From NCBI GenBank assembly GCA_030837225.1, contig JAUPKX010000016.1:1-57537 (forward strand): a stretch of 57,537 bases of DNA, read 5' to 3'. The stretch is from Patescibacteria group bacterium (GTDB taxonomy: Bacteria; Patescibacteriota; Minisyncoccia; Phycocordibacterales; Phycocordibacteraceae). The notes beneath the pieces were generated by a model. That model worked only from the letters and a program-made list of their open reading frames with translations, did not search any database and was not told the DNA's origin. A program made the position numbers and the translations under genes. Shown here in pieces: positions 4,030-27,415 of this stretch (positions within the stretch are counted from its first letter, which is position 1; each line of letters starts with the position of its first letter).

Positions 4030-5124
4030 ATGAAAATCGGCATCGTAGGACTTCCGAACGTTGGGAAGTCCACTCTCTTTAATGCACTTACTAAGGCCGC
4101 AGTCCCTGCGGAGAATTATCCGTTCTGCACCATAGACCCGTCTGTGGGTGTGGTTGGTGTTCCGGACGAGCGACTTACCCGTCTCGCAGAGCTATCGAAG
4201 TCCGAGAAGACGCTGCCTGCCGCTATCGAATTCGTTGATATCGCAGGACTCGTTAAGGGCGCCTCTGAGGGTGAGGGTCTTGGGAACCAGTTCCTTTCTC
4301 ATATCCGCGAAGTTGATGCCATCCTTCAGATGGTGCGCTTCTTTGACGATCCTGACGTTATCCACGTGCATGGAGATGTTGATCCGGTTCGAGATATCGA
4401 GATTATCAACCTCGAGCTCATCCTCGCGGATCAGCAGTCCGTGTCTGGACGTCGCGAGCGCTTGGTGCGCGACGTGAAGTCTGGCAACAAGGATGCGGTT
4501 GCTGAGGACGGAGTGCTTACTTTAATTGAACAAGCGCTACTCTCTGGAAAGCTCGCACGAACGGTGGAGCTTTCTGACGAAGATGCAAAGCGCATTAAGT
4601 CCCTGAACCTCCTTACCCGAAAGCCAATTCTCTACTCCTTCAACGGAAAGGCAGGAGGACACAATCTCTCAGAGCTTAACGACGGACGTGCGCAGGCTGC
4701 ATACGATCTTGTTGAGTCTCTTGGCGGACGCTACGTAGAGGTTGATGCACGTACTGAGCATGAGCTGAACGATGTGGCTTCAGAGGATAAGGATATGTTC
4801 CGTTCTGAGCTTGGGGTTCAGGTAGACGGACTCGAGGCGCTCATTCGCGGTGCATACGAGACACTTGGCCTCATCACCTTCTTCACGACCGGTCCGAAGG
4901 AGACTCGTGCCTGGACCATTACACGTGGGGCGTCAGCGCCTGAAGCAGGTGCGGCTATCCATAACGACTTTAAGGACAAGTTTATTAGAGCTGAGGTTGT
5001 TGGGTGCGATACGCTCGTTCAAGACGGCTCGTGGAGCGCTGCCAGAGACAAGGGAGACATACGGACTGAAGGGAAGACGTATATCGTGAACGATGGGGAT
5101 GTGATGGTGTTTTTGCATAGTTAG
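4030..5124 (+). CDS. ychF: Redox-regulated ATPase YchF
   Basis: [42 protein letters not shown]-terminal TGS domain. Confidence 0.98.
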
Positions 5125-5165
5125 ATCTCTCCCATAGAAGAGGTGGTCGCGTACTGAGTCCCAAA

Positions 5166-5191
5166 GGTTCGATCCCCAGTCTCCCAGCAAT
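5166..5191 (+). repeat. Array 1 leading site, short form (GGTTCGATCCCCAGTCTCCCAGCAAT), tRNA-3'-end-like
   Basis: Shares GGTTC and CCCAG.CT.CCAGCAAT with the long repeats; same form as 25623-25648. Confidence 0.8.
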
Positions 5192-5206
5192 GATAAACTG
5201 GTACTA

Positions 5207-5857
5207 ATGATAAAAGCTGAACTCAGGAAGCAGCTGGTAGATATAGCAAAAGAGCGTCAAACGAAGACCGACGTATCTCATGATTTTCAGCATGTGTTAC
5301 GTGTCTGCAACGTGGCTGAGAAGATAGCAGATACGGTGAATGCTGATCCAGAGATTGTTATACCTGCTGCGCTCTTCCACGATATCGTTGTCTATGCGAA
5401 GAATTCTCCTGAATCTCAGTTTGAGAATGAAGAGAGTGCGGAACTTGCAGGAGAGATACTCTCCTCGGTAGAGGGATATCCTTCTGAGAAGATAGAAGCA
5501 GTAAAGGCCTGTATACGCGAATGCTCGTTCTCTAAAGGAACTCTCCCTAGCTCTCTTGAATCTTCAGTGCTTCAAGATGCGGACCGCATGGATTCAGTAG
5601 GAGCAATTTCCATAATGCGAACATTCTCTTCGGGAGGACAGATGAATCGTCCTCTCTATGATCCTGAAGATCCTTTCTGTAAAGGAGAAAATCCGCCAAG
5701 CACTAGCGTGAGGCTTTTCTATAAAAGACTCTTGGTTGTAGCAGATCGGATGCACACAGACTATGCGAGAGAAGCAGCAAAACGGCGCGCTGATTTTACG
5801 AAGAGGTTCTTAGTGCAGCTTGGAATTGAGCTCGAAGAGAGTGGAATCGTTAAATAG
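5207..5857 (+). CDS. HD-domain phosphohydrolase (YedJ/YpgQ-like); cassette 1.1
   Basis: HDFQHVLRV, ALFHD, LQDADRMDSVGAI motifs. Confidence 0.88.
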   Translation: MIKAELRKQLVDIAKERQTKTDVSHDFQHVLRVCNVAEKIADTVNADPEIVIPAALFHDIVVYAKNSPESQFENEESAELAGEILSSVEGYPSEKIEAVKACIRECSFSKGTLPSSLESSVLQDADRMDSVGAISIMRTFSSGGQMNRPLYDPEDPFCKGENPPSTSVRLFYKRLLVVADRMHTDYAREAAKRRADFTKRFLVQLGIELEESGIVK

Positions 5858-5888
5858 GGTTCCAACATCGTCCCAGACTGCCAGCAAT
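5858..5888 (+). repeat. Cassette-boundary repeat, long form, copy 1
   Basis: GGTTCCAACATCGTCCCAGACTGCCAGCAAT immediately after the TAG of 5207-5857. Confidence 0.95.
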
Positions 5889-5991
5889 ACTTGTATTAAG
5901 CCCTCCGTGGGTATAGGGTGCGTATGGCTAACGCCAGGGTAGAAATACCTGTTCATGAACCCCTAACGGGACCTTGAAAAAGGAAGATGAA

Positions 5992-6468
5992 ATGGACTCG
6001 ATTGCAGACACGCTTATATGCGGATCCGCTGAAATAAATCGCATGAGAAGCGAGATTGATCTCGTTACTCAAATGCTCTTTGGGCTCGCAAAAGTTCCGC
6101 GAAATTCCAGACGATGGGAAGAAATCCGGCCAAAGCACCACCACGGTCTGATAGATTTCTCAATTAGTTTCGGCGACTTCGAGACAGTAGGGGTGGTATG
6201 GGAAGTCTGGTGGTTTAGTGGAGAAGACAAATTCCGTACCCAATGTCTACTCCAGACGTCTTCTCAGGACGATTGCCGTTGCGCATATCGGACCCGAATG
6301 CAGAGTGTGCATCGCGACTTCCACCCAACATATGGCGATCTCGGGGTCGCTGGGATCCAGAAAGCTCGAGAAACCCTGGATGTGTTTGTCGACGGAATGC
6401 TTCAGGAGTTTGGGCTAAATACCGCAACTAAGCCGTTCATAGATGCGGCAAGGATGCGAAAAGAGTAG
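5992..6468 (+). CDS. Hypothetical protein; cassette 1.2
   Basis: Only long plus-strand ORF between two repeats; ATG preceded by AAAGGAAG (alternative TTG start at 5974); own terminator. Confidence 0.65.
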   Translation: MDSIADTLICGSAEINRMRSEIDLVTQMLFGLAKVPRNSRRWEEIRPKHHHGLIDFSISFGDFETVGVVWEVWWFSGEDKFRTQCLLQTSSQDDCRCAYRTRMQSVHRDFHPTYGDLGVAGIQKARETLDVFVDGMLQEFGLNTATKPFIDAARMRKE

Positions 6469-6471
6469 TTG

Positions 6472-6512
6472 TGGCCGCCTAGTACCGAAAGGGAACGGCG
6501 GCCATTTGCTTT
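6472..6512 (+). terminator. Terminator hairpin; first 31 nt identical to 9210-9240
   Basis: tggccgcc-tagtaccgaaagggaac-ggcggcca followed by tttgcttt. Confidence 0.75.
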
Positions 6513-6517
6513 ATAAA

Positions 6518-6548
6518 AGTTCCAACATCGTCCCAGACTGCCAGCAAT
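6518..6548 (+). repeat. Cassette-boundary repeat, long form, copy 2
   Basis: AGTTCCAACATCGTCCCAGACTGCCAGCAAT. Confidence 0.95.
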
Positions 6549-6581
6549 CAGAGACAGGAGACTGCAAGTATAATTAGACCC

Positions 6582-7499
6582 ATGGAACTTCCAACGGAAC
6601 TAAAGGCTTTGTATAGGCATTGGCCAGAACATACTGCACAGCAAGCCAAACAACCTAATCTATGCGACGTATTTGAAGACGAAAAACTTTTTAAAGAGAT
6701 TTCAGCTTTCATCCATACACGGATGTCTATCTGGGAGAAGAAATATGTTGGGATGCCTCCTCCATATAGCGATGATCCAATTCTCTCCACATATCGCTTT
6801 TGTAACATCCTTAGGGAACTTGATCGACAAACAATCGAATACCACACACTCCTGAATCCGCTGCGAAGCGATTTCCAGCTGTGGCTTCTGAATATGTTTT
6901 ATTGTCGTCTGGTCGCTCGGCCAGAGACCGTACGTGCCGTTGGTCTTCTTTCCTTCGATCGCGCAAATAATGAAGCACTATACGAACGATTGAGTAAGTA
7001 TCCTCGTCCCCGATACGGCACACCGTACGTATTTCCTATAAGTACTATCTTGCGAAGCGCAACACCGACGAGAGAAGAATTCGTTGTACGACATTTGCCA
7101 GGTGTAATTGGAGGAATTGCAGAAGAAATATCCAGCTGGCGAAAACTGTCAGTAGTGGAGGGGGTAAGACGGGTGATCCCCTTATTCGGATTCAATCAGA
7201 CGTTCCTCTGGACCGAAGTACTTATTGATGTGGCGTATCAGTTTCCAGAACATATAGATCTATACAAGCCATTTCCAGTGGGTCCAGGCTCCTCTCCGAC
7301 CTTCAAGAGAATCGATCTTCATACGGAACCTTCTGAGCTTGCAGCGCAGTTAGGGCTTCTCGGATTCGAAACAAAACTAACATATGAGCGAGTGCCCCTT
7401 ACACTATCTGCTGAAAACTGGGAGGGAGTTGGTTGCGAGTTTCGCAAGTACACAAATCTAGAGTCCGGAAAGGGAAGGAGGCGTCTTTTTAAAACCTAA
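6582..7499 (+). CDS. aGPT-Pplase1 / 5-hmdU-kinase helical-domain (amino acid:DNA transferase-like) protein; cassette 1.3
   Basis: Signature PPYSDDPILSTYRFCNILRELDR, VGPGS and CEFRKY. Confidence 0.7.
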   Translation: MELPTELKALYRHWPEHTAQQAKQPNLCDVFEDEKLFKEISAFIHTRMSIWEKKYVGMPPPYSDDPILSTYRFCNILRELDRQTIEYHTLLNPLRSDFQLWLLNMFYCRLVARPETVRAVGLLSFDRANNEALYERLSKYPRPRYGTPYVFPISTILRSATPTREEFVVRHLPGVIGGIAEEISSWRKLSVVEGVRRVIPLFGFNQTFLWTEVLIDVAYQFPEHIDLYKPFPVGPGSSPTFKRIDLHTEPSELAAQLGLLGFETKLTYERVPLTLSAENWEGVGCEFRKYTNLESGKGRRRLFKT

Positions 7500-7500
7500 A

Positions 7501-7531
7501 AGTTCCAACATCGTCCCAGACCGCCAGCTCT
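7501..7531 (+). repeat. Cassette-boundary repeat, long form, copy 3
   Basis: AGTTCCAACATCGTCCCAGACCGCCAGCTCT, 1 nt after the TAA of 6582-7499. Confidence 0.95.
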
Positions 7532-7548
7532 AGTATATTTGCTACTGT

Positions 7549-8046
7549 ATGCGTATGTCACTTCCTCCAGAAGTACCCGTAGAAGACTACGTCTATAAGT
7601 ATCTTCTCGGCCCGGTAGAATCTGCCGAGGCGCTTAACCAGCCTGTGACAGAAGGAAATTGTAGGCTGGCACTACAGCTCTATTATTTTCGCGTACACGG
7701 CATATTTTTTCAGCAGAACGATATTTATCTCCCCGGTGGATACAAAGCATGGGGAGAATTTATCTTTAAAGAGGAACCAATAGATTTTGAGAAGCTCCAA
7801 CCAGGAGATGTCTTGTATGCCCAGAACTTCCGAGGAAAGAGAGGTCAGGAACTGCTCAAGGGCATAGAGAACTTTAAGGACAAAGACGAATGGTTATATC
7901 ATCTACATAGTGCCATTTACGTTGGAAAGATTAGCGGCACGCATTACATTTGGAATGCGACAAGTATTGTTGGAGCTACGATCACGTGGCCGCTAGAAAC
8001 CTTTGTATACTATTACAAGCCAATTTCGGCAAAGAGGATACTGTAA
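7549..8046 (+). CDS. NlpC/P60-like papain-fold protein; cassette 1.4
   Basis: GNC (catalytic Cys), LQPGDVLY and HSAIYVG (catalytic His). Confidence 0.65.
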   Translation: MRMSLPPEVPVEDYVYKYLLGPVESAEALNQPVTEGNCRLALQLYYFRVHGIFFQQNDIYLPGGYKAWGEFIFKEEPIDFEKLQPGDVLYAQNFRGKRGQELLKGIENFKDKDEWLYHLHSAIYVGKISGTHYIWNATSIVGATITWPLETFVYYYKPISAKRIL

Positions 8047-8047
8047 A

Positions 8048-8078
8048 GGTTCCAACATCGTCCCAGGCTGCCAGCAAT
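8048..8078 (+). repeat. Cassette-boundary repeat, long form, copy 4
   Basis: GGTTCCAACATCGTCCCAGGCTGCCAGCAAT, 1 nt after the TAA of 7549-8046. Confidence 0.95.
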
Positions 8079-8168
8079 AGTCTGAATTGTAGTCATTTCT
8101 CTTAGGCTGCAAGTTGGTAAGTTTGTGGTATAGTCCTCACGGATTAACCCAATCACAAGGAGGCCGCC

Positions 8169-9188
8169 ATGGCCGAAGCTACCTATAGGATGCAAGCGCT
8201 CGTGGTGCTTCGGGAAGGGATGCGTCTCTTCTACGATTGCCCGAGTATGAGCGGCGAAAGTTTCGAGTCTGACAATTTCTTCAGGAAGTACAAGGGCAAG
8301 ACGGGAATCATCGCAGGGTTCCCAATCACCCTCGTTGGCCCGTTCGATTCCAAAGGTCGCCTTCCGGGTTCGTACCTTACGCCCGGGTACATGCATGTTC
8401 GATTTGAGGGTGAGGAAGAGTTTCATCAAAGCCTTAATCTCCATCATTTCGTTCTGCTGGATCCGACCACCACCGTAACCGATGAAGAGTTCGACGAGGC
8501 TCAACGCAGCGGCGACCTTCCGCACCCAATCCTCTTCTATCCAGGGGATACGGTGTACAAGCAGGATGACCTGTTGCAGGTCCGTCGTGTCGTTCAAGAA
8601 GTAAAATTCGGCACTGCCGGTATTCCGCTCTATGTGTTGAGCGAAACCTCGGAAGCCACTGAGCGGCGTATGGCTGACAAGGCGGCCGATCATGCTGAGC
8701 GAGAGGCGAGAAGGGAGGCAAGCCCTGACAACCTGCCTCTCCTTTCTGGATTTTGTTCGCACGACAGGCCGGAAACGGAAACGTGTGAGGGCACGAATCT
8801 CGTGCTCCTCGAACGTGGCCACAGCTACTACCTCTACCACGACCCTTCGAAGCTATCGTTTGCGTCAGCTGAGGAAGAACTGGACTTCTGGAGTCAGGAT
8901 GGCCTGTCGAAGACCTTCTACGGACCTCGACGACTCTTCCGTACTTGGGAGTGGTCGCTGGCCCAGGCCCGAGCCCTCTTGGAGGAGGGGAAGGGAGACC
9001 TCATCGTTACTTCCAGAATGCCTAGAGGCAGGCGAGATGATTCTGAGCAGAAGTACACGGTCAGGATCCTGCACGCAGGCTTCGCTGAATATCGTGACCG
9101 CGTTCGGCAACTTGCTTTGTCCATTGCACCACCTCTCGAGAAGGAAAAAACCTTCGCAGAGTTGGGACGAGGCCTTCTGGATCTGTGA
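8169..9188 (+). CDS. Hypothetical protein; cassette 1.5
   Basis: 339-aa ORF with AAGGAGG Shine-Dalgarno, TGGTATAGT promoter box upstream and its own terminator. Confidence 0.75.
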   Translation: MAEATYRMQALVVLREGMRLFYDCPSMSGESFESDNFFRKYKGKTGIIAGFPITLVGPFDSKGRLPGSYLTPGYMHVRFEGEEEFHQSLNLHHFVLLDPTTTVTDEEFDEAQRSGDLPHPILFYPGDTVYKQDDLLQVRRVVQEVKFGTAGIPLYVLSETSEATERRMADKAADHAEREARREASPDNLPLLSGFCSHDRPETETCEGTNLVLLERGHSYYLYHDPSKLSFASAEEELDFWSQDGLSKTFYGPRRLFRTWEWSLAQARALLEEGKGDLIVTSRMPRGRRDDSEQKYTVRILHAGFAEYRDRVRQLALSIAPPLEKEKTFAELGRGLLDL

Positions 9189-9209
9189 TATCAAGTTCAA
9201 GTGCTTAAC

Positions 9210-9250
9210 TGGCCGCCTAGTACCGAAAGGGAACGGCGGCTTTTATTTTC
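9210..9250 (+). terminator. Terminator hairpin; first 31 nt identical to 6472-6502
   Basis: tggccgcctagtaccgaaagggaacggcggc followed by ttttattttc. Confidence 0.8.
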
Positions 9251-9254
9251 AAAA

Positions 9255-9285
9255 AGTTCCAACAGCGTCCCAAACTGCCTGCTAT
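9255..9285 (+). repeat. Cassette-boundary repeat, long form, copy 5 (last of array 1; diverged right arm)
   Basis: AGTTCCAACAGCGTCCCAAACTGCCTGCTAT. Confidence 0.9.
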
Positions 9286-9296
9286 ACTTCTCGCAT

Positions 9297-9734
9297 ATGG
9301 AAATAAGCAACCTTCTGGGGCCAGTGGAAATGCAGTTTGTTATTGGTCTTGGGCTCTCCCTTATCCTTGGATACTTTGTTGGAGTCGAGCGTGAGATGCG
9401 CCATAAGGATGCAGGTATCAGCACGCACATCATGGTTATCGCCGGCTCAATGCTTTTCACACTCCTCTCGAGCATTGTTGACCCTCTTTCAACCTCGCGC
9501 ATTGCGTCACAGATTGTGGTTGGTATCGGATTCCTCGGTGCCGGACTCATCCTTAAAGAAGGAGCTAGTGTTAAGAATCTCACAACCGCAGCAAGTGTAT
9601 GGTTCGCAGCTGCTATAGGTATGGCACTTGGATTCGGTTTCTACATTGTTGCGATTCTCGCTGCACTCGTTATTACTCTTGTTCCGCGTATCCCAAGCTT
9701 GCATAACGAGAAGTGCGTAAAGTGCCCTGAATAA
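9297..9734 (+). CDS. MgtC/SapB family membrane protein
   Basis: G.ERE...KDAGISTH, SRIASQIVVGIGFLGAGLI and LTTAASVW motifs; ATG 8 nt after TATACT. Confidence 0.92.
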   Translation: MEISNLLGPVEMQFVIGLGLSLILGYFVGVEREMRHKDAGISTHIMVIAGSMLFTLLSSIVDPLSTSRIASQIVVGIGFLGAGLILKEGASVKNLTTAASVWFAAAIGMALGFGFYIVAILAALVITLVPRIPSLHNEKCVKCPE

Positions 9735-9764
9735 AATTGCAGAGTCGTGGTATAATCCACGTAT

Positions 9765-10745
9765 ATGGAAAACACCCCCGCTGCAGCACCCTCCGCATCG
9801 AAGACAACACCGCGCGACTTCTTTTTCTGGGCTGGGCTCCTTGTAGCACTTATTGGAAGCGTCATCTCGCTTACGACGCTCCTCTTCTCCTATATAAACT
9901 TCGCGTTCCCTGATCCGCTTGCGTACTACGGCGATCCGTACGGCAGTGATGTGCGCATCGCGATGGCGTGCGTGATTGTATTCATCCCAACCGCGCTCGT
10001 ACTCGTGCACCTGATTAGAAAGACAATCATAAACGAGGCCGGAAAGGCGAACATCTGGGTCCGTCGTTGGGCACTCGGTCTCATACTCTTCGTTTCGACC
10101 CTAACTATCCTCATAGACCTCATAACGCTCATCATGACGTTCCTTGGGGGCGAGCTATCAATTCGCTTTGGTCTTAAGGTAGCGGTGGTGCTCCTCATTG
10201 CAGCGTTCATGTTCCTTCACTTCCTCGCAGACCTTAAGGGATACTGGCTTGAGCACGTGAAGAAGGCAGGTCTCGTGTCCTCTTCGATACTCGCCATGGC
10301 ACTCGTCTCGGTTGTTGCCGGCTTCTTTATCATTGGTACACCGGGAGACATCCGCATGATGCGCTTCGACGAGCAGAAAGTATCTGATCTTCAGAACATC
10401 CAGTACCAGGTAGTTAACTACTACCAGCAGAAGGAGGAGCTTCCTGAGTCTCTTGCAGAGCTTAGTGACCCAATCTCAGGGTTTGTTCTCCCTGTTGATC
10501 TACAGCCGGGTAGTGCTGCATATCGCTACACTGTTACCGGTCCGCTCTCGTTTGAGCTTTGTGCCGTGTTCAATAAGCCAACGCCTGATACGCGTGGCCA
10601 AGGAGGGTATCCAGCCCGTGATATGAGCTATCCATCGCCAGGTATGGGCGTTGATGAGAATTGGCAGCACGAAGCGGGCGATATCTGCTTTACACGCACC
10701 ATCGACCCTGAGCGCTACCCGGCTTTCGAGAAGCCTCTACAGTAA
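9765..10745 (+). CDS. Membrane protein (DUF5671-like) with pilin-like C-terminal domain
   Basis: TPRDFF N-terminus, 5 TM segments, D.QKVSDLQNIQ..V.NYY...LP.SL..L and YRYTV...FELCAVF. Confidence 0.65.
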   Translation: MENTPAAAPSASKTTPRDFFFWAGLLVALIGSVISLTTLLFSYINFAFPDPLAYYGDPYGSDVRIAMACVIVFIPTALVLVHLIRKTIINEAGKANIWVRRWALGLILFVSTLTILIDLITLIMTFLGGELSIRFGLKVAVVLLIAAFMFLHFLADLKGYWLEHVKKAGLVSSSILAMALVSVVAGFFIIGTPGDIRMMRFDEQKVSDLQNIQYQVVNYYQQKEELPESLAELSDPISGFVLPVDLQPGSAAYRYTVTGPLSFELCAVFNKPTPDTRGQGGYPARDMSYPSPGMGVDENWQHEAGDICFTRTIDPERYPAFEKPLQ

Positions 10746-10754
10746 GAAGACTGT

Positions 10755-13649
10755 ATGGCGAAAGAACGGTTCGATCATGTAGCGATTGAGAAGTCCGCCC
10801 AGGAGAAATGGGAGGCGCTTGATATCTACACCACTGATCTAACTGATTCTGAAAAGGAACCGTACTATCTTCTGTTCGAGTTCCCGTATCCTTCGGGAGA
10901 CCTTCATATCGGTCACTGGTTTGCGTTTGCCCTTACGGACATATTCGCGCGCTTCAAGCGTATGCAAGGAAAGAACGTATTGTTCCCAATGGGATTCGAT
11001 TCGTTTGGTCTTCCTGCGGAGAATGCCGCTATTAAGAACGGCGCGGATCCGGCGGTATGGACTAACGCGAACATGGAGCGCATGCGTGCGCAGGTGAAGA
11101 CCATGGGAACCTCGGTTGACTGGTCTAAGGAAGTCGTTACCTCGAGTCCTGAGTACTACAAGTGGACTCAGTGGCTCTTCTCGAAGCTTTATGACCATGG
11201 ACTTGCGTACCGCAAGGAAGCGGCGGTGAAGTGGTGTCCGAAGGATCAGACGGTGCTCGCCAACGAGCAGGTAATAGACGGGAAGTGTGAGCGCTGCGAC
11301 TCTGAAGTAGAGGAGAAGTTCCTAACACAGTGGTTCATGGGTATTACGAAGTACGCAGAACGTCTCCTCACGGATCTTGATCCGCTTCCATGGCGCGAAG
11401 AGATGAAAGATGCGCAGCGCGCATGGATAGGAAAGTCAGAGGGCGCAAAGCTTACCTTCCCTATCCTTTTTGCTGACGAAGCGAAGAACGAGTGGCGAGA
11501 CGAGGAAGGAAACCCGGCACAGGTAGCTGTGTTCACAACCAGACCAGATACGGTCTTCGGTGCTACCTATGTAGTGCTCGCACCCGAGCATCCGTGGGTA
11601 ACAGGGGCGCTTGAGCACGGTACTGACGTATTTTCAAACGAGAAAGAGGTTCGTGCGTATATACAGGAGACCGCAAAGAAGACTGAGCGAGAGCGACTTG
11701 AGAACAAGGAGAAGACTGGTGTGAAGCTTGAGGGTATTCGTGCCGTTAATCCAGCCACAAAAGGAGAAGTCCCGGTCTATATCGCTGACTACGTACTCGC
11801 CTCATACGGAACAGGTGCGGTTATGGCGGTTCCCGCTCATGACGAGCGTGATTTTGATTTCGCACAGAAGTTTAAACTTCCAATCCGGCATGTTATTGAG
11901 CCAAAGTTTGTGGCGGATGGAGATCAAGCACCAATATCAGGACAGGATTTTGAACGTCGAGAATCAGCGTGCATCGTAGTCTATAACCCAAAGGATAAGA
12001 CTTATCTATGTAACAACTGGAAAACTGCTCTCATGCGTGGTTTGTTTACTGGCGGAATAGATGAAAACGAGGATGTTGTTGAGGCAGCTAGACGAGAGAT
12101 CTTGGAGGAAACCGGCTATACAAATTTGCGTCATATTGAACGTCCTGAGTTGCACGTAAACACATTCTTCTTCCATCGCATGAAGGGTGTAAATCGTTGG
12201 TCTCACTTTACGTTTGTATTTTTTGAGCTTGAGAATGAGGATTGCCTACCTGTAACGGACGAAGAATCAGCGCTTCACGAAATAGTGTGGAAGTCTGCAG
12301 AGGAGTTAGACGATTTCTTTACTGTTCCTGAAGGATGGTTTATAGCTAAGCACCTCGATGCTGCAGAGTACTGTTATTCGTACGACGGCCTTCTAATGAA
12401 TTCTGGTCAGTTCGATGGCAAAGACAACCGTGAAGCCATGAGCGAGATCATCGACTTCGTGGGTGGCGAGCACGTAACGAACTATCGCCTTCGCGACTGG
12501 CTCGTCTCTCGCCAGCGGTACTGGGGCTGCCCAATCCCTGTTGTGTACGACCCTGAAGGTGCACTGCACCTCATCCCGTCCGAGCATCTCCCGTGGACTC
12601 TCCCAACAGACGTCGACTTCTCGCTGTCCTCTGAGTCTCCACTCGCAACCTCAAAGGAACTTAAGGAGCGCGTTGAGCGTATTTTTGGCGAGGGATGGAC
12701 TCCTGAGTACGATACGCTCGATACCTTCGTTGATTCTTCATGGTATTTCCTTCGGTATCTCGACTCAAAGGACGAGAATGATTTCTCAGACCAGTCACTA
12801 TTAAAGAAGTGGCTACCGGTTAATCGGTATTCGGGAGGCAGCGAGCACACAACCATGCACCTCTTGTATTCGCGCTTCTTCCATAAGGCGCTCTACGATC
12901 TTGCTCTGGTGCCTACACCGGAGCCATTCAACGAGCGTTTTAATCGCGGACTCATACTTGGCACCGACGGACAGAAAATGAGTAAGCGCTGGGGCAATGT
13001 TGTTAATCCGGACGAGGTCGTTGCAAAATTTGGTTCAGACGCGGTGCGTATGTATCTCGCGTTCATCGGTCCATACAACGAGCCAGGAAGTTATCCGTGG
13101 AAGCTTGATGGCGCAGTTGCAATGCGCAAGTTCCTCGATCGCGTGTACCAGCTGTCAGAAAAGGTATCAGAGGGCGAGCTGTCAGAGAACGAGCGAACGT
13201 CGCTCGCGAAGGCCGCGAAGAAGATAACGGGCGATACAGAGCGCTTCAAGTTCAATACTGCTATCTCAGGACACATGGTCTTCGTTCGTGAGCTCGAGAG
13301 TGCTGAGACTGTATCGAAAGAGGTATACCTCGCACTCCTAACGCTTATGGCTCCATTTGCCCCGCACCTTGCCGAGCATCTCTGGGAGCGGATGGGGGGC
13401 GAGGGTAGCGTACATACGGCCTCGTGGCCGGAGGAGATCGCAGTTGAGGAAGACACGGTTGTTATAGGGGTGCAGGTAAACGGGAAAAGGAGGGGAGAGA
13501 TTGTCCTGGCCCCAGATGCCTCAGAAGAGGAGGCAATGGAGGCTGCAAAGGCTAACGAGACCATAGGTCGCCTTCTTCATGAAGGAAAGGTGGAGAAAGT
13601 GGTCTATGTACCAGGCCGTATTCTGAACCTGGTGATAACACGAAGTTGA
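10755..13649 (+). CDS. leuS: Leucine--tRNA ligase with inserted Nudix domain
   Basis: FPYPSGDLHIGH, TTRPDT, GTGAVMAVPAHD and KMSKR; Nudix box GGIDENEDVVEAARREILEETG inserted. Confidence 0.97.
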   Translation: MAKERFDHVAIEKSAQEKWEALDIYTTDLTDSEKEPYYLLFEFPYPSGDLHIGHWFAFALTDIFARFKRMQGKNVLFPMGFDSFGLPAENAAIKNGADPAVWTNANMERMRAQVKTMGTSVDWSKEVVTSSPEYYKWTQWLFSKLYDHGLAYRKEAAVKWCPKDQTVLANEQVIDGKCERCDSEVEEKFLTQWFMGITKYAERLLTDLDPLPWREEMKDAQRAWIGKSEGAKLTFPILFADEAKNEWRDEEGNPAQVAVFTTRPDTVFGATYVVLAPEHPWVTGALEHGTDVFSNEKEVRAYIQETAKKTERERLENKEKTGVKLEGIRAVNPATKGEVPVYIADYVLASYGTGAVMAVPAHDERDFDFAQKFKLPIRHVIEPKFVADGDQAPISGQDFERRESACIVVYNPKDKTYLCNNWKTALMRGLFTGGIDENEDVVEAARREILEETGYTNLRHIERPELHVNTFFFHRMKGVNRWSHFTFVFFELENEDCLPVTDEESALHEIVWKSAEELDDFFTVPEGWFIAKHLDAAEYCYSYDGLLMNSGQFDGKDNREAMSEIIDFVGGEHVTNYRLRDWLVSRQRYWGCPIPVVYDPEGALHLIPSEHLPWTLPTDVDFSLSSESPLATSKELKERVERIFGEGWTPEYDTLDTFVDSSWYFLRYLDSKDENDFSDQSLLKKWLPVNRYSGGSEHTTMHLLYSRFFHKALYDLALVPTPEPFNERFNRGLILGTDGQKMSKRWGNVVNPDEVVAKFGSDAVRMYLAFIGPYNEPGSYPWKLDGAVAMRKFLDRVYQLSEKVSEGELSENERTSLAKAAKKITGDTERFKFNTAISGHMVFVRELESAETVSKEVYLALLTLMAPFAPHLAEHLWERMGGEGSVHTASWPEEIAVEEDTVVIGVQVNGKRRGEIVLAPDASEEEAMEAAKANETIGRLLHEGKVEKVVYVPGRILNLVITRS

Positions 13650-23706: not shown

Positions 23707-25623
23707 ATGACTGTATCTGAAGTCCGTAAGCGATTCCTGGCATTCTACGAGGCCCGTGGCCATGTGATTATCCCATCAGCTCCTATTGTGCCCGGGAACG
23801 ATCCAACAACGCTCTTCACCTCAAGTGGCATGCAGCCCTTGCTCCCATACTTCCTTGGAAAGGATCATCCGGAAGGAAAGCGCGTGGTGAACTCTCAGCT
23901 CGCCTTCCGTGCAGGAGACATTGAGGAAGTAGGAGACAATCGTCACACGACATTCTTCGAGATGCTCGGGAACTGGTCCTTTGGTGACTATTTCAAGCAG
24001 GAACAGCTGCCGTGGATATTTGAGTTCCTTACGAGTACCGAGACGGGCTTTGGTATTGATCCAAGTAAGCTGTATGTAACCGTGCTTGCAGAGGACAAGG
24101 AGGCGGGCATCCCGCTTGATACAGAAGCCGTAGAGCTCTGGAAACGACTGTTTAAGGAAAAGGGAGTTGCTGCGGAGTTCTCTAACATAGGCAGCGAAGC
24201 TGATGGATACGAGAAAGGCATGGGAACAAGCGATCGCATATTTGCGTATGACGCCAAGAAGAACTGGTGGAGCCGCTCAGGGGTGCCAAGTAATATGCCA
24301 GCAGGCGAACCAGGGGGTCCTGACTCAGAGATTTTTTATGACTTCGGGACGACGCACGATACAAAATGGGGCACTCACTGCCATCCGAACTGTGACTGTG
24401 GGCGGTTTGTTGAGATAGGGAACTCGGTGTTTATGCAGTTTGTTAAGAATGAAGATGGTTCCTTTGAGGAGCTTCCGAAGAAGAATATCGATTTTGGCGG
24501 AGGCCTCGAGCGTATAACGATGGCAACCGTTGGACCAGATATCTTTAGTCTTGATATCTTTGACGCTGCTCGCGCGGTTATTGAAGAACGCTCTGGAAAG
24601 AAGTATGGGGAAGATGAGGCTGCTGCTCGCGCATTCCGCATCATTCTCGACCACATGCGCGCGAGCGCGTTCATGCTAGCCGAAGGAATCCTCCCGTCTA
24701 ACACCGAGGCAGGCTATGTACTACGCCGGTTGCTTCGTCGTGCGATACGCGAATCAGATCGTCTTGGTATCAAGGACGCCGTACTCGCTGACGTTGCGAG
24801 GGGGTATGGGCAGGCGTATGCCGACCAGTACCCACACGTACTTGCAAACGCTCCGAAGATAGCAGAGGAGATTGCAAAAGAGGAGGAGAAATTCCGCAAA
24901 ACCCTTACGGGCGGCATGCGCGAGCTAGAGAAGTTAGTAGCAAAGGGCTCTGTTACTCCAGAGGATGTGTTTACCCTGTTTACGTCCTATGGCTTCCCTG
25001 TTGAATTAACTGAAGAGATTGCGAACGAGCGTGAGATAGAGATAGACCTCGCTGGCGTACTCGAGCTTATGAAGAAGCATCAAGAGACCTCAAGGGCAGG
25101 AGGAGCCCAGCGCTTTGCGGGCGGACTTGCAGACCACGCAGAGCAGACGGTACGGTATCACACCGCACACCATATCCTTCTAAAGGCGCTTCAGATGGTG
25201 CTTGGTTCAGAGGTTAAGCAGCGCGGTTCAAACATAACCTCTGAGCGTCTTCGTATAGACTTTGCATCTCCAGGCAAGATGACGGACGAACAGAAAGCTG
25301 AGGTTGAGAAGATTGTGAACGAGGTTATATACCAGGATCTTCCGGTTACGCGTACTGTTATGCCACGCGAAGAGGCAGAGAAACTTGGAGCTGAGATGGA
25401 GTTCGGTGTTAAGTATCCGGATATGGTGTCGGTATATTCTGTTGGCCCAATACACGCAACAGAAGAGACCCCGGATATCCCTAACGCGTTTTCTCTTGAG
25501 TTCTGCGGAGGGCCGCACGTATCTAATACAAGCGAGATACATGCAGACGGAAGGAAGTTCCGTATTCAGAAGGAAGAAGCGGTAGCGAGCGGTGTTCGCA
25601 GGATTAAGGGGGTGTTGGAGTAG
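23707..25623 (+). CDS. alaS: Alanine--tRNA ligase (short form without C-Ala domain)
   Basis: DPTTLFTSSGMQP, RHTTFFEMLGNWS, HTAHH and EFCGGPH; ends at GVRRIK. Confidence 0.97.
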   Translation: MTVSEVRKRFLAFYEARGHVIIPSAPIVPGNDPTTLFTSSGMQPLLPYFLGKDHPEGKRVVNSQLAFRAGDIEEVGDNRHTTFFEMLGNWSFGDYFKQEQLPWIFEFLTSTETGFGIDPSKLYVTVLAEDKEAGIPLDTEAVELWKRLFKEKGVAAEFSNIGSEADGYEKGMGTSDRIFAYDAKKNWWSRSGVPSNMPAGEPGGPDSEIFYDFGTTHDTKWGTHCHPNCDCGRFVEIGNSVFMQFVKNEDGSFEELPKKNIDFGGGLERITMATVGPDIFSLDIFDAARAVIEERSGKKYGEDEAAARAFRIILDHMRASAFMLAEGILPSNTEAGYVLRRLLRRAIRESDRLGIKDAVLADVARGYGQAYADQYPHVLANAPKIAEEIAKEEEKFRKTLTGGMRELEKLVAKGSVTPEDVFTLFTSYGFPVELTEEIANEREIEIDLAGVLELMKKHQETSRAGGAQRFAGGLADHAEQTVRYHTAHHILLKALQMVLGSEVKQRGSNITSERLRIDFASPGKMTDEQKAEVEKIVNEVIYQDLPVTRTVMPREEAEKLGAEMEFGVKYPDMVSVYSVGPIHATEETPDIPNAFSLEFCGGPHVSNTSEIHADGRKFRIQKEEAVASGVRRIKGVLE

Positions 25624-25648
25624 GTTCGATACTCAGACTGCGAGCAAT
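25623..25648 (+). repeat. Array 2 leading site, short form (GGTTCGATACTCAGACTGCGAGCAAT)
   Basis: Overlaps the alaS stop codon; same length and layout as 5166-5191; CAGACTGC.AGCAAT matches the long repeats. Confidence 0.8.
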
Positions 25649-25666
25649 AATTGCTATACTCAAGCT

Positions 25667-26122
25667 ATGGCAGATACAATTTTCGACAAACTCCTCAAAG
25701 GAAACATTCCGTCATGGAAAGTCTGGGAAGATGAGAAGTTTCTAGCTTTTCTAACGCCATTTCCCAACACGCCGGGACTAACGGTTGTAATACCCAAGCA
25801 GAATATTGGAGACTATGTTTTTAACCTGCAAGAGTCAGAGTACGAAGAGTTATTGAAGACGGCGAAGACCGTAGCCAAGATTCTGGAAAAGGCATTCAAT
25901 ACTCCTCGCGTATCATTAATATTTGAAGGTACTGGTGTGGCTCATGTTCACGCAAAGCTCGTCCCACTCCATGGAGAATTAGCCGAGCAGACAGGAGTAT
26001 GGAGTCCTCATACTGAATTCAATGAGCAATATCTTGGTTACCTTACTACTGCAGAAGGTCCAAAAATGGATGATTCGGAACTGGATCGAATTCAAGGACT
26101 CATTCTTGAAGCACAGAAATAA
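25667..26122 (+). CDS. HIT family nucleotide hydrolase; cassette 2.1
   Basis: TIFDKLL.G.IP, FLTPFPNTPG.TVVIPK and VAHVHAK (third His of HxHxH replaced by Lys). Confidence 0.9.
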   Translation: MADTIFDKLLKGNIPSWKVWEDEKFLAFLTPFPNTPGLTVVIPKQNIGDYVFNLQESEYEELLKTAKTVAKILEKAFNTPRVSLIFEGTGVAHVHAKLVPLHGELAEQTGVWSPHTEFNEQYLGYLTTAEGPKMDDSELDRIQGLILEAQK

Positions 26123-26152
26123 GTTCCAACATCGTCCCAGACTGCCAGCCCG
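26122..26152 (+). repeat. Cassette-boundary repeat, long form, copy 6
   Basis: AGTTCCAACATCGTCCCAGACTGCCAGCCCG overlapping the HIT stop codon. Confidence 0.95.
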
Positions 26153-26167
26153 ATATACAATGGACGT

Positions 26168-26494
26168 ATGTTGCAAGGAACTATCGTTGAGAATAGTCTA
26201 ACTGACCCTACTGTCTTAGGAGACTTGTCTATTCTTAAGAGTTGGCCTGAAGGGTCTTGGAAGCTTCATCAAGTGCAACTTGATAGAGAGCAGGCAATTG
26301 AGCTAGCAACCTTTCTAGCTGACGGGCCTTGGTATATGCATTTCTGGGAGCCGGGTACTGAAGATGTACTCGTTGTTTTTAAAGACAAAACTTTTGACAT
26401 AAAGTATTCAGACAAATCTACATGGGAAGAAGCGGTTGCCTATGGGAAGTCGACTGGTGTTCCCGAGGAGCAACTAGATTTTCTGATTTACTAA
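26168..26494 (+). CDS. Hypothetical protein; cassette 2.2
   Basis: 108 aa; G.IVENSL, WYMHF and YGKS.GVPEEQLDF motifs; ATG 6 nt after TACAAT. Confidence 0.8.
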   Translation: MLQGTIVENSLTDPTVLGDLSILKSWPEGSWKLHQVQLDREQAIELATFLADGPWYMHFWEPGTEDVLVVFKDKTFDIKYSDKSTWEEAVAYGKSTGVPEEQLDFLIY

Positions 26495-26525
26495 GGTTCC
26501 AACATCGTCCCACACCCCCAGCAAC
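26495..26525 (+). repeat. Cassette-boundary repeat, long form, copy 7 (last of array 2; diverged right arm)
   Basis: GGTTCCAACATCGTCCCACACCCCCAGCAAC, between the TAA at 26494 and the convergent stop at 26526. Confidence 0.92.
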
Positions 26526-27362
26526 CTAATCTTGAACCGTAACCTCAGTGCCAACCGGCGCCCACCCATACAACTCTCTGGCTATATCAAGGGGTACATT
26601 CACACACCCATGAGACCACTGCTGTCCGAAGTTGGTGTGCCAGTACGCGCCGTGTATAGCGCCCCCTTCAGCCGTGAAGTACATATTCCAGGGAACACCT
26701 GGTAGGTCGTAATAATCCTCAGATATGCCCGGGAGAGGTCCTTGCATATACCGACTTGGAGTCTTCTTAAACACTTTGAAGTTCCCGCGTGGCGTTGGAG
26801 TTAAATCGTGTCCGGTTGAGATTGTAGTCTTTAAAACGAGTTCCTTGCCATCATACGCATAAAGCATCTGCTCAGAACGATCGACAACGATACGCTTATC
26901 TGTTGGCTCGTCTCCAGTCATTGGTAATGTAGCCCCTGGGTCATAGAACGCGCGCACCTGGTCGCTCGCTACATACCAATCCTTCGCTACTCGATCTGGA
27001 TAGCGTATCCACTCGTTGAACTCCACCTTGTACCAAACGCGTCCAGACGCATCCGTCTCGGTGTCTTTTGATATAGGAAGTACCGTTCCGGTACGTAGTT
27101 TTCCAATAGCGGGAGCCGACGTCGTTGCTTCCATGCGTATGTTTACGCAGCTTCCAGAGAAGTCAGCGCCGCACCCGTCGAGCACTTCGATAAAGGATGG
27201 TACTTCCGTTTTTGGTTCCTCGGCAAATATAAGCTCAGAAACCGCACTCGTTGTTTCCTCAAGTGAAACAATCTTTCCGTTATATGCAAAGAATGTTAGG
27301 CACGCTGCCGCAAGCGCACCAATCAGGAGCGATACGAGCAAAATCTTCTTATCCCTATCCAT
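26526..27362 (-). CDS. L,D-transpeptidase (YkuD) with N-terminal TM and SH3-like domain
   Basis: IVVDRSEQ, ISTG...TPRG and AIHGAYWH...SHGCVN motifs. Confidence 0.92.
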   Translation of the reverse strand: MDRDKKILLVSLLIGALAAACLTFFAYNGKIVSLEETTSAVSELIFAEEPKTEVPSFIEVLDGCGADFSGSCVNIRMEATTSAPAIGKLRTGTVLPISKDTETDASGRVWYKVEFNEWIRYPDRVAKDWYVASDQVRAFYDPGATLPMTGDEPTDKRIVVDRSEQMLYAYDGKELVLKTTISTGHDLTPTPRGNFKVFKKTPSRYMQGPLPGISEDYYDLPGVPWNMYFTAEGGAIHGAYWHTNFGQQWSHGCVNVPLDIARELYGWAPVGTEVTVQD

Positions 27363-27415
27363 GTCCCTAGAGTACCGTACCGGGTACTCTCAGTCATCCT
27401 GGTATACTAGCCTGC

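Follow-up and report, generated by a model that had tools for sequence, protein, structure and literature searches.

The window analysed here, a stretch of 57,537 nt, is contig C6 of a 667-kb Patescibacteria genome (G000; 16 contigs, 97.9% complete), and it carries two arrays in which single genes alternate with short repeats. As summarized in Table 1, array 1 lies between ychF and mgtC and consists of a short site followed by five single-gene units with a long site after each, and array 2 starts from the alaS stop codon and consists of a short site, a HIT gene, a long site, a 108-aa ORF, a second long site and a YkuD gene in reverse orientation. The initial annotation had stated that both arrays open with a short form and that all later sites are long, and this was confirmed at the coordinates of Table 1.

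The long left arm, GTTCCAACATCGT, was found at 5859, 6519, 7502, 8049, 9256 (with one mismatch), 26123 and 26496, always on the plus strand; a search allowing up to two mismatches returned these 7 matches versus 1.21 expected, and 7 were reached in none of 100 shuffles. Co-oriented cassette ORFs end 0 to 4 nt upstream of a long site (1 nt for the stop codon of cassette 1, before the site at 5859), and the alaS stop codon TAG (25621-25623) overlaps the first base of short site 2. The last site of each array had been described as having the most diverged right arm, and the sites at 9256 and 26496 carry three mismatches each to the 27-mer consensus, of which two at 9256 fall in the right arm and one in the left.

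Table 1. Features of the two cassette arrays in the window
Feature	Position	Strand	Remarks
ychF, core gene, left anchor of array 1	4030..5124	+	Pfam YchF-GTPase_C, MMR_HSR1
Short (attB-type) site 1, GGTTCGATCCCCAGTCTCCCAGCAAT	5166..5191	+	Ectopic copy of tRNA-Gln(UUG) 3' end
Cassette 1 gene, HD-domain protein	5207..5857	+	Pfam HD, E 1.7e-11
Long (attP-type) site	5859..5888	+	0 mismatches to 27-mer consensus
Cassette 2 gene, 164 aa	5974..6468	+	Without Pfam family
Long site	6519..6548	+	0 mismatches to 27-mer consensus
Cassette 3 gene, 5-hmdU DNA kinase-like helical domain	6582..7499	+	Pfam HMUDK_hel, E 2.3e-14
Long site	7502..7531	+	1 mismatch to 27-mer consensus
Cassette 4 gene, 165 aa	7549..8046	+	Without Pfam family
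Long site	8049..8078	+	1 mismatch to 27-mer consensus
Cassette 5 gene, 339 aa	8169..9188	+	Without Pfam family
Last long site, array 1	9256..9285	+	Long-type left part joined to native mgtC promoter sequence
mgtC, right anchor of array 1	9297..9734	+	Pfam MgtC, E 6e-34
alaS, core gene, left anchor of array 2	23707..25623	+	Pfam tRNA-synt_2c
Short (attB-type) site 2	25623..25648	+	20/26 match to tRNA-Gln(UUG) 3' end
Cassette gene, HIT-family	25667..26122	+	Pfam HIT, E 3e-10, on longer frame 25592-26122; ATG at 25667
Long site	26123..26149	+	0 mismatches to 27-mer consensus; directly after TAA stop codon
Cassette gene, 108 aa	26168..26494	+	Without Pfam family
Last recognisable long site, array 2, diverged right arm ACCCCCAGC	26496..26522	+	3 mismatches, all in right arm
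YkuD-type L,D-transpeptidase gene, inserted material	26526..27362	-	Pfam YkuD

At the far end of array 2, the last recognisable long site shares CCCCCA with the orthologous last site of the congener G021, the YkuD gene is missing between alaS and a 386-aa gene in 14 of 16 relatives, and inspection of 27363-27415 revealed no site beyond the far end of the YkuD gene. The HMUDK_hel gene (6582-7499) belongs to a family tied to phage DNA hypermodification, which would make it an unexpected cargo in a bacterial chromosome. Two hairpins were also seen. The same GC-rich hairpin (TGGCCGCC..GGCGGCC) ends two unrelated cassettes just before a long site (6472-6517 and 9210-9255; 85% identical over 46 nt), perhaps as a common terminator or as a longer version of the site. 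A long hairpin of -23.6 kcal/mol (z -3.4, with 1 of 200 shuffles as good) is formed by the final alaS codons and short site 2 (25590-25660). Its pairing bases differ in the orthologous G021 sequence, and the other six sites examined lack such a fold.

Cassette turnover and array polarity among relatives

The order ychF, variable region, (mgtC), DUF5671 and leuS was kept in the 18 relatives fetched, and the content of the variable region differed: ychF is followed by five cassettes in G000, by one different cassette in G021 and by two in G064. The G021 ychF protein is 99% identical to that of G000, and its cassette lies between the same short and last long sites. In G065 and G057, mgtC directly follows ychF without any site, and short site 1 is missing from the orthologous locus. 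The right end of the long site at 9256, CCTGCTATACT, is also present upstream of mgtC in the empty G065 locus, and GCCTGCTACACT is the G051 form of this sequence. Protein identity between G000 and G021 around array 1 (window 4030-13649 versus locus L009) is mosaic, being 99% for ychF, 90% for DUF5671, 87% for MgtC and 81% for LeuRS, which points to recombination between relatives in this region.

The initial annotation had predicted that an empty hybrid site, made of the left arm of a first site and the right arm of a last site, should exist in relatives, and such a site was present at the xer-xth locus. There, G000 has a short site, a cassette, a long site, a second cassette and a second long site, and G021, whose recombinase gene is 99% identical, has the single site GCTTCGATCCCTAGTCTGCCAAC|TAT, which joins the short left arm to the right arm of the last long site of G000. 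In other relatives xer and xth are adjacent with no site between them. Across 62 cassettes only one pair showed nucleotide homology, and 35 cassettes have their longest ORF in the direction of the array, 25 have it in the opposite direction and 2 have no ORF.

Short site 2 has orthologues in G021 and G051 and none in 14 of 16 relatives, in which alaS is followed by the 386-aa gene without a short site (within about 100 nt in 12 of them). Since more distant relatives have the ychF, alaS and xer loci without a short site, the short sites after these genes are not ancestral and have themselves been acquired; the earlier view of the ychF and alaS short sites as pre-existing tRNA-like targets did not hold. 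In three of four loci the ectopic short site starts exactly at the TAG stop codon of the upstream gene.

Assembled read data contributed little on turnover. Logan contigs break at the repeats, and six joints considered as evidence of deletion or circles were rejected, as their shorter side, 20 to 30 nt, is the repeat itself and shows neither event. Logan contigs from runs of other studies (X5-X7) contained near-identical pieces of cassettes 3 to 5, and had no cover of cassettes 1 and 2, which is no evidence of their absence.

Site order was then surveyed in G000 and 78 further loci, 15 from five congeners and 63 public Patescibacteria loci (16 of 80 public loci were left out by record title, plus one duplicate), with same-strand sites less than 3.5 kb apart taken as one group. 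A long site was contained in 90 groups. Recognised short sites opened 46 of them, every one of these groups having its short site first, across many Patescibacteria, and 19 of the 46 opening short sites are the 3' end of a tRNA-Gln gene called by ARAGORN. The remaining 44 groups open with a long site at the survey thresholds; a tRNA-Gln gene lies up to 3.5 kb upstream in 8 of them, the first site lies within 1.5 kb of the locus start in 12, and array 2 of the window is itself counted here because short site 2 exceeds the mismatch limit. A short site after a long site was observed in two groups only, both times at the start of a new run, and no locus had sites on both strands. These results indicated that the order seen in the window, short first and long later, holds generally in such arrays, as had been anticipated. 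The repeat-bearing public records are those of Paceibacterota, Parcubacteria, Kaiserbacteria, Nomurabacteria and similar groups.

The divergence of last sites was likewise a trend across arrays. In 38 arrays from G000 and its relatives, last long sites had on average more right-arm mismatches than internal ones (2.87 versus 1.65; 25 arrays higher, 7 lower and 6 equal; Wilcoxon p 0.0007, a value that overstates independence, as do all p values here, since the arrays come from related genomes), and the left arm showed no difference (0.68 versus 0.61, p 0.32).

Other regularities concern strand and neighbourhood. In G000 every site is on the strand richer in G, presumed to be the leading one (window 5166-9285 and 25623-26522; contig C12 at 30-70 and 179-222 kb), and on C12 their orientation flips with the sign of GC skew near 175-180 kb. 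Of 79 loci from other genomes, 64 have their sites oriented in accordance with the local skew, as do 48 of the 55 with an absolute skew of at least 0.02; the cassette genes point either way despite this matched orientation of the sites. Recurrent neighbours of the arrays, read from sequence without a family search, are a DnaX-like gene (16 loci) and a Dus-like gene (13 loci); both were considered as recombinases and rejected, being core genes instead.

tRNA-Gln likeness and the proposed crossover position

The short sites had been described as having the layout of a tRNA-Gln 3' end, and comparison with the 38 tRNA genes that ARAGORN found in G000 bears this out. Short site 1 matches the 3' end of tRNA-Gln(UUG) (C4:59883-59954) plus three flanking bases at 25 of 26 positions (next best tRNA, 18); the corresponding counts are 20 of 26 for short site 2 (next best, 16) and 14 of 17 for the long-site right arm (next best, 10). 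ARAGORN found no tRNA in the window, and Rfam returned no tRNA match over 4900-9400 at E values up to 10 and no family for the sites. Neither short site is thus a tRNA gene or pseudogene, as the tRNA models find no cloverleaf, in agreement with the earlier remark that short site 1 is not an intact tRNA; the 41 nt that separate ychF from short site 1 were also considered as a pseudo-tRNA, an idea dropped for want of model support. The expectation that cassettes might follow the real tRNA-Gln genes was borne out, as both such genes of G000 have long sites downstream, the one after tRNA-Gln(CUG) being the variant GTTCGAATATCGTCCCAGACGGTCAGC. ARAGORN found no tmRNA gene in this 97.9% complete genome. 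A second, partial T-arm copy (AGGTTCGAGTCCTAG) was seen about 100 nt downstream of tRNA-Gln(CUG) at another locus of the genus (L201, G055:C1), where a distal serine recombinase is present and long sites are absent; it may represent another site type of the same kind of system.

Base differences between the two site forms served as markers for the point of exchange. Short sites have T63 in 49 of 60 and T66 in 56 of 60 cases, and internal long sites have C63 in 92 of 92 and A66 in 81 of 92. At position 69, 35 of all 60 short sites share the G of the long sites, where tRNA-Gln(UUG) of G000 has C; at the xer-xth locus the discriminator base, A or G, moves together with the right side; and the excess divergence of last long sites is concentrated at positions 70-74. 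The initial annotation had placed the crossover within the segment shared by both forms, and these markers bracket it more narrowly and place it, as judged from the aligned sites, at tRNA positions 67-68. CT is the only dinucleotide at these positions that is common to the tRNA, short and long forms, and position 68 varies in long sites (T in 50, A in 18, C in 13 and G in 11 of 92).

Profiling of 239 long and 39 ectopic short sites showed a single 9-bp outer motif, AAGGTTCSA, the end of which is 13 nt away from CT in the long form and 8 nt away in the short form. The short form has it exactly 5 bp nearer to the crossover. Conservation of the long site reaches about 25 bp to the left of CT. For large serine integrases, Rutherford et al. 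2013 (PMC3783163) give an attP half-site of 25 bp with a 9-bp zinc-ribbon-domain motif at positions 16-24, and the same motif shifted 5 bp toward the centre in attB. The short and long forms therefore look like the attB and attP forms of such integrases, to within one base of the published positions. The two forms differ from them on the right side. Studied large serine recombinases (LSRs) use two half-sites, and here only the left one is conserved, which counts against assigning the sites to an LSR: no conserved motif beyond GCCAGCAAT was found in the right flanks, the site is not a pseudo-palindrome of two half-sites, and the flanks downstream of tRNA-Gln(UUG) are diverse in 20 genomes of the genus. 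Neither the consensus nor the folds revealed an internal dyad of similar arms around a short spacer. RNA folding gave z scores between -1.0 and +2.0 for five long sites and of +1.6 for short site 1, short site 2 being the only one with a good fold.

Recombinases in the genus and at the arrays

No Resolvase-domain gene was detected in G000 (97.9% complete), and the LSR profile had no match among its 702 ORFs. The initial annotation expected a recombinase to be associated with the repeat, and none was found in G000 or beside the arrays in 79 loci: the 1416 ORFs examined there contained no LSR and gave two weak profile matches, and the one checked, upstream of a short site in G021, proved to be a Peptidase_M23 gene. 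The array-bearing genomes G016, G018, G020, G064 and G074 had, like G000, no LSR match, many LSR-bearing genomes had no long site at up to 3 mismatches, and there was no positive link between the two at the level of genomes. Conversely, no long site was found in 80 LSR loci at up to 6 mismatches. In genome_contigs and metagenome_contigs, no LSR-like gene was recovered that reads through an exact long-site core, and patterns joining the core to an LSR motif or to an LSR-type right arm, with a spacing verified on real loci, gave no match. A search for distal junctions of LSR elements at tRNA-Gln yielded nothing convincing. Other candidates were also discarded. All 37 matches to the long-site core in IMG/VR lie in unrelated sequence with no LSR nearby (33 on contigs of 60-70% GC with one conserved flank and 4 on contigs of about 45% GC, the right arm differing in all), and alphaproteobacterial matches to the repeat look like the same chance identity. 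Y1 transposase, Cas12f1-like_TNB (PF07282, TnpB type) and rve had no match in G000, and IS110 had a single sub-threshold one (15.5 bits).

LSRs are nevertheless common in the genus, being present in 38 of 61 genomes, and many of them are joined to tRNA genes. In a public set of 80 loci of one LSR family, 52 LSR ORFs end antisense inside a tRNA gene, 11 of them inside tRNA-Gln, and the same holds for 13 of 21 further LSR ORFs of the genus. The LSR gene directly overlaps tRNA-Gln in G052 and G015, and in four other loci of the genus an LSR lies 2.5 to 7 kb downstream of tRNA-Gln and points back at it. The conserved LSR body gives way to a tail derived from the tRNA at the 3' end of that tRNA. 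Among the 120 best homologues, 7 LSRs lack a tRNA junction and have the tails ..ATLYDQVRTFF, ..RLYDETRTYF or ..LVYDFARTYF, which the antisense reading of the long site, LLAVWDDVGTF, resembles. In two such native attP arms (L252 and L269) the arm opens with AGGTTCG, 4 nt further from the conserved LSR motif than in tRNA-joined copies. The likeness to LSR tails suggested in the initial annotation was thus partly upheld: the tails are alike and tRNA-antisense LSRs are common in the genus, but no gene with the exact tail was recovered. A further LSR gene lies directly upstream of ychF on the same strand in G051 (L191, G051:C3:20711-24145), where the last 50 nt or so of the LSR gene extend into the start of ychF, and in G070 (C13:13277-13711); this suggests an LSR family that targets the 5' end of ychF.

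A candidate attachment-site system and its alternatives

We consider it probable, at roughly 0.58, that the short and long repeats are the two attachment-site types used by a site-specific recombination system with LSR geometry and that cassettes join the arrays at the short site; the earlier attB/attP reading of the sites is supported. The recombinase would most likely be an LSR, as judged by site geometry. The short site would be of the attB type, comprising the last 20 or so bases of a tRNA-Gln gene (T-loop, 3' strand of the T-stem and 3' strand of the acceptor) or an ectopic copy of them, and the long site would be of the attP type, with a 25-bp left half-site in which AAGGTTCSA is 5 bp more distant from the point of exchange. 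In the proposed event, a circular cassette with a single long site would recombine with the short site at CT, regenerating at the anchor a site with short left arm and cassette right arm and leaving a site with long left arm behind the cassette; the array would therefore grow at its short end, and its last long site would keep the right arm of the original target. The sites, their polarity, the empty hybrid site, cassette turnover, the crossover interval, the 5-bp shift and the tRNA-Gln-targeting LSRs of relatives were observed here; the action of an LSR on just these sites, a circular stage of the cassettes and a first place for the newest one are inferred. The enzyme is not encoded in G000 and might be supplied in trans by an absent or unbinned element, or the cassettes may now be static. 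A simple event between attP and a pseudo-attB leaves the appearance of short sites at new loci without explanation. We put forward only tentatively a wider scheme for Patescibacteria, a distributed LSR-based gene capture in which tRNA-Gln attB half-sites are seeded after core genes, cassettes carry half an attP and no recombinase, and a helper element that is rarely assembled acts in trans to insert and remove them.

The cassettes could instead be remains of autonomous LSR elements that had inserted at the tRNA-Gln-type site and later lost their recombinase module, leaving immobile fossil stacks. Array-rich genomes without a recombinase and the missing right half-site would fit such decay, as would the four tRNA-Gln loci of the genus with LSRs 2.5 to 7 kb away, which look as if pushed outward by later insertions, and the Dehalococcoides ssrA islands, an integration module being reported for only 16 of the 31 identified (McMurdie et al. 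2011, PMC3146451). However, every cassette would need a precise deletion that left GCCAGCAAT directly followed by cargo, and the four loci with distal LSRs have no long sites. Long sites are moreover identical (0 of 27 mismatches) in genomes whose ychF proteins are only 74-87% identical, which suggests recent exchange or selection rather than decay, and we regard the fossil explanation as unlikely.

An integron-like system is a second alternative, in which a Xer-like tyrosine recombinase (C12:180198-181142) would join short and long sites, as Xer does for dif-exploiting elements. This is the sole tyrosine recombinase found in G000, one array ends flush with the stop codon of its gene, and the empty site of G021 abuts the gene as well. 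The gene is nonetheless convergent with that one array only, is a conserved single copy in 57 of 61 genomes of the genus whether or not they have long sites, and is adjacent to xth, site-free, in other relatives, and no tyrosine recombinase homologue lies beside the arrays in 79 loci. Unlike Xer/dif modules, the sites lack two similar arms around a short spacer, and we know of no counterpart among tyrosine-recombinase sites to the 5-bp shift of a single motif. A role for this enzyme therefore seems improbable to us.

Equally small is the chance we give to a scheme without any dedicated enzyme today, in which the repeats are homology patches and DNA uptake with homologous recombination swaps cassettes between neighbouring long sites. 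It would agree with the lack of a recombinase in the genome, with long sites of 27 to 35 nt that are nearly identical between genomes, and with the mosaic identity of core genes between G000 and G021 (ychF 99%, LeuRS 81%), but it leaves the 5-bp motif shift, the short-first order and the divergence of last sites in the right arm only without explanation, and an event between a short and a long site would have just about 11 bp of shared sequence to work on. That the repeats are expression signals (a terminator, part of a promoter or an RNA-processing site) rather than recombination sites is highly improbable, for although they begin 0 to 4 nt after the stops of co-oriented genes and many are followed by TATACT-like boxes, they have no consistent RNA fold and no Rfam family, the longest ORF runs against the array in 25 of 62 cassettes, and DNA rearrangement is indicated both by the empty hybrid site and by entire units of gene plus site that some relatives have and others lack.

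A full-text literature search found no description of such arrays in Patescibacteria. By analogy the nearest described system would be the ssrA islands of Dehalococcoides, which according to McMurdie et al. 2011 (PMC3146451) are tandem, lie downstream of a small RNA gene, are bounded by the end of the tmRNA gene or a 20-bp repeat, and have a serine recombinase of about 540 aa on the reverse strand next to attL where the integration module is present (16 of 31). They share with our arrays the tandem stacking at the 3' end of an RNA gene and insertion in the region from T-loop to 3' end. They differ in that the islands measure about 12 kb, whereas the units here are single genes of 0.3 to 1.2 kb, in that the repeat here is an attP-type form 5 bp longer rather than a plain copy of the RNA gene end, and in that target copies here are seeded at non-tRNA loci (ychF, alaS and xer) in a genome without the recombinase. 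The att sites of LI/A118, Bxb1 and phiC31, as given in PMC3783163, likewise have a 25-bp attP half-site, a shorter attB and a 9-bp motif shifted by 5 bp; unlike these phage-type sites, ours conserve the left half-site only, and their recombination products would remain usable as targets, which gives arrays. Nor do the arrays resemble tandem islands built by LSRs in gene content, as no LSR gene lies in or beside the elements in G000 and the 79 loci.

Two further systems may serve as functional analogues, namely composite islands of the staphylococcal cassette chromosome (SCC) and integrons. SCCmec composite islands (CcrAB/CcrC) arise by LSR-type integration at the 3' end of a conserved gene and form tandem composites, some members of which lack a recombinase; their target is a protein gene, their elements are tens of kb long, the recombinase is normally in the array, and site conservation is mainly one-sided. 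The present arrays are alike in the LSR-type geometry, the single conserved gene 3' end, the tandem arrangement, the members without recombinase and the one-sided conservation, and unlike in using a tRNA end instead of a protein gene, in their small cassettes and in having no recombinase in the arrays. Integrons combine IntI, an attI platform and arrays of attC cassettes, and integrase-less attC clusters exist. The layout here is similar, with one platform site and then cassettes of one gene each, closed by a conserved site of which nearly all lies left of the crossover, and with high cassette diversity and turnover. Unlike integrons, the arrays have no IntI beside the platform, their long sites fold no better than shuffles and show no attC dyad, their cassette genes occur in both orientations (35:25), a tRNA 3' end serves as the platform, and a genome has many platforms.

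The ultra-small Patescibacteria have very few recognised mobile elements, and the route by which they exchange genes is in question. The arrays provide a compact and widely shared means of gaining and losing single genes, and two stretches of a tiny genome are divided by them into rows of swappable single-gene cassettes. The site geometry predicts an LSR whose two substrates are an attP-type arm of 25 bp and an attB-type arm of tRNA-Gln, with exchange at CT. Should recombinase-less cassettes with half an attP indeed move, the known range of LSRs would be wider, and very small natural att sites would become available for genome engineering. If the arrays are fossils, they would represent a long record of insertion at one tRNA end and would explain much strain-level variation in gene content. 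If capture by a helper element is real, it would provide genomes of about 0.7 Mb with a flexible pool of genes comparable to that of integrons.
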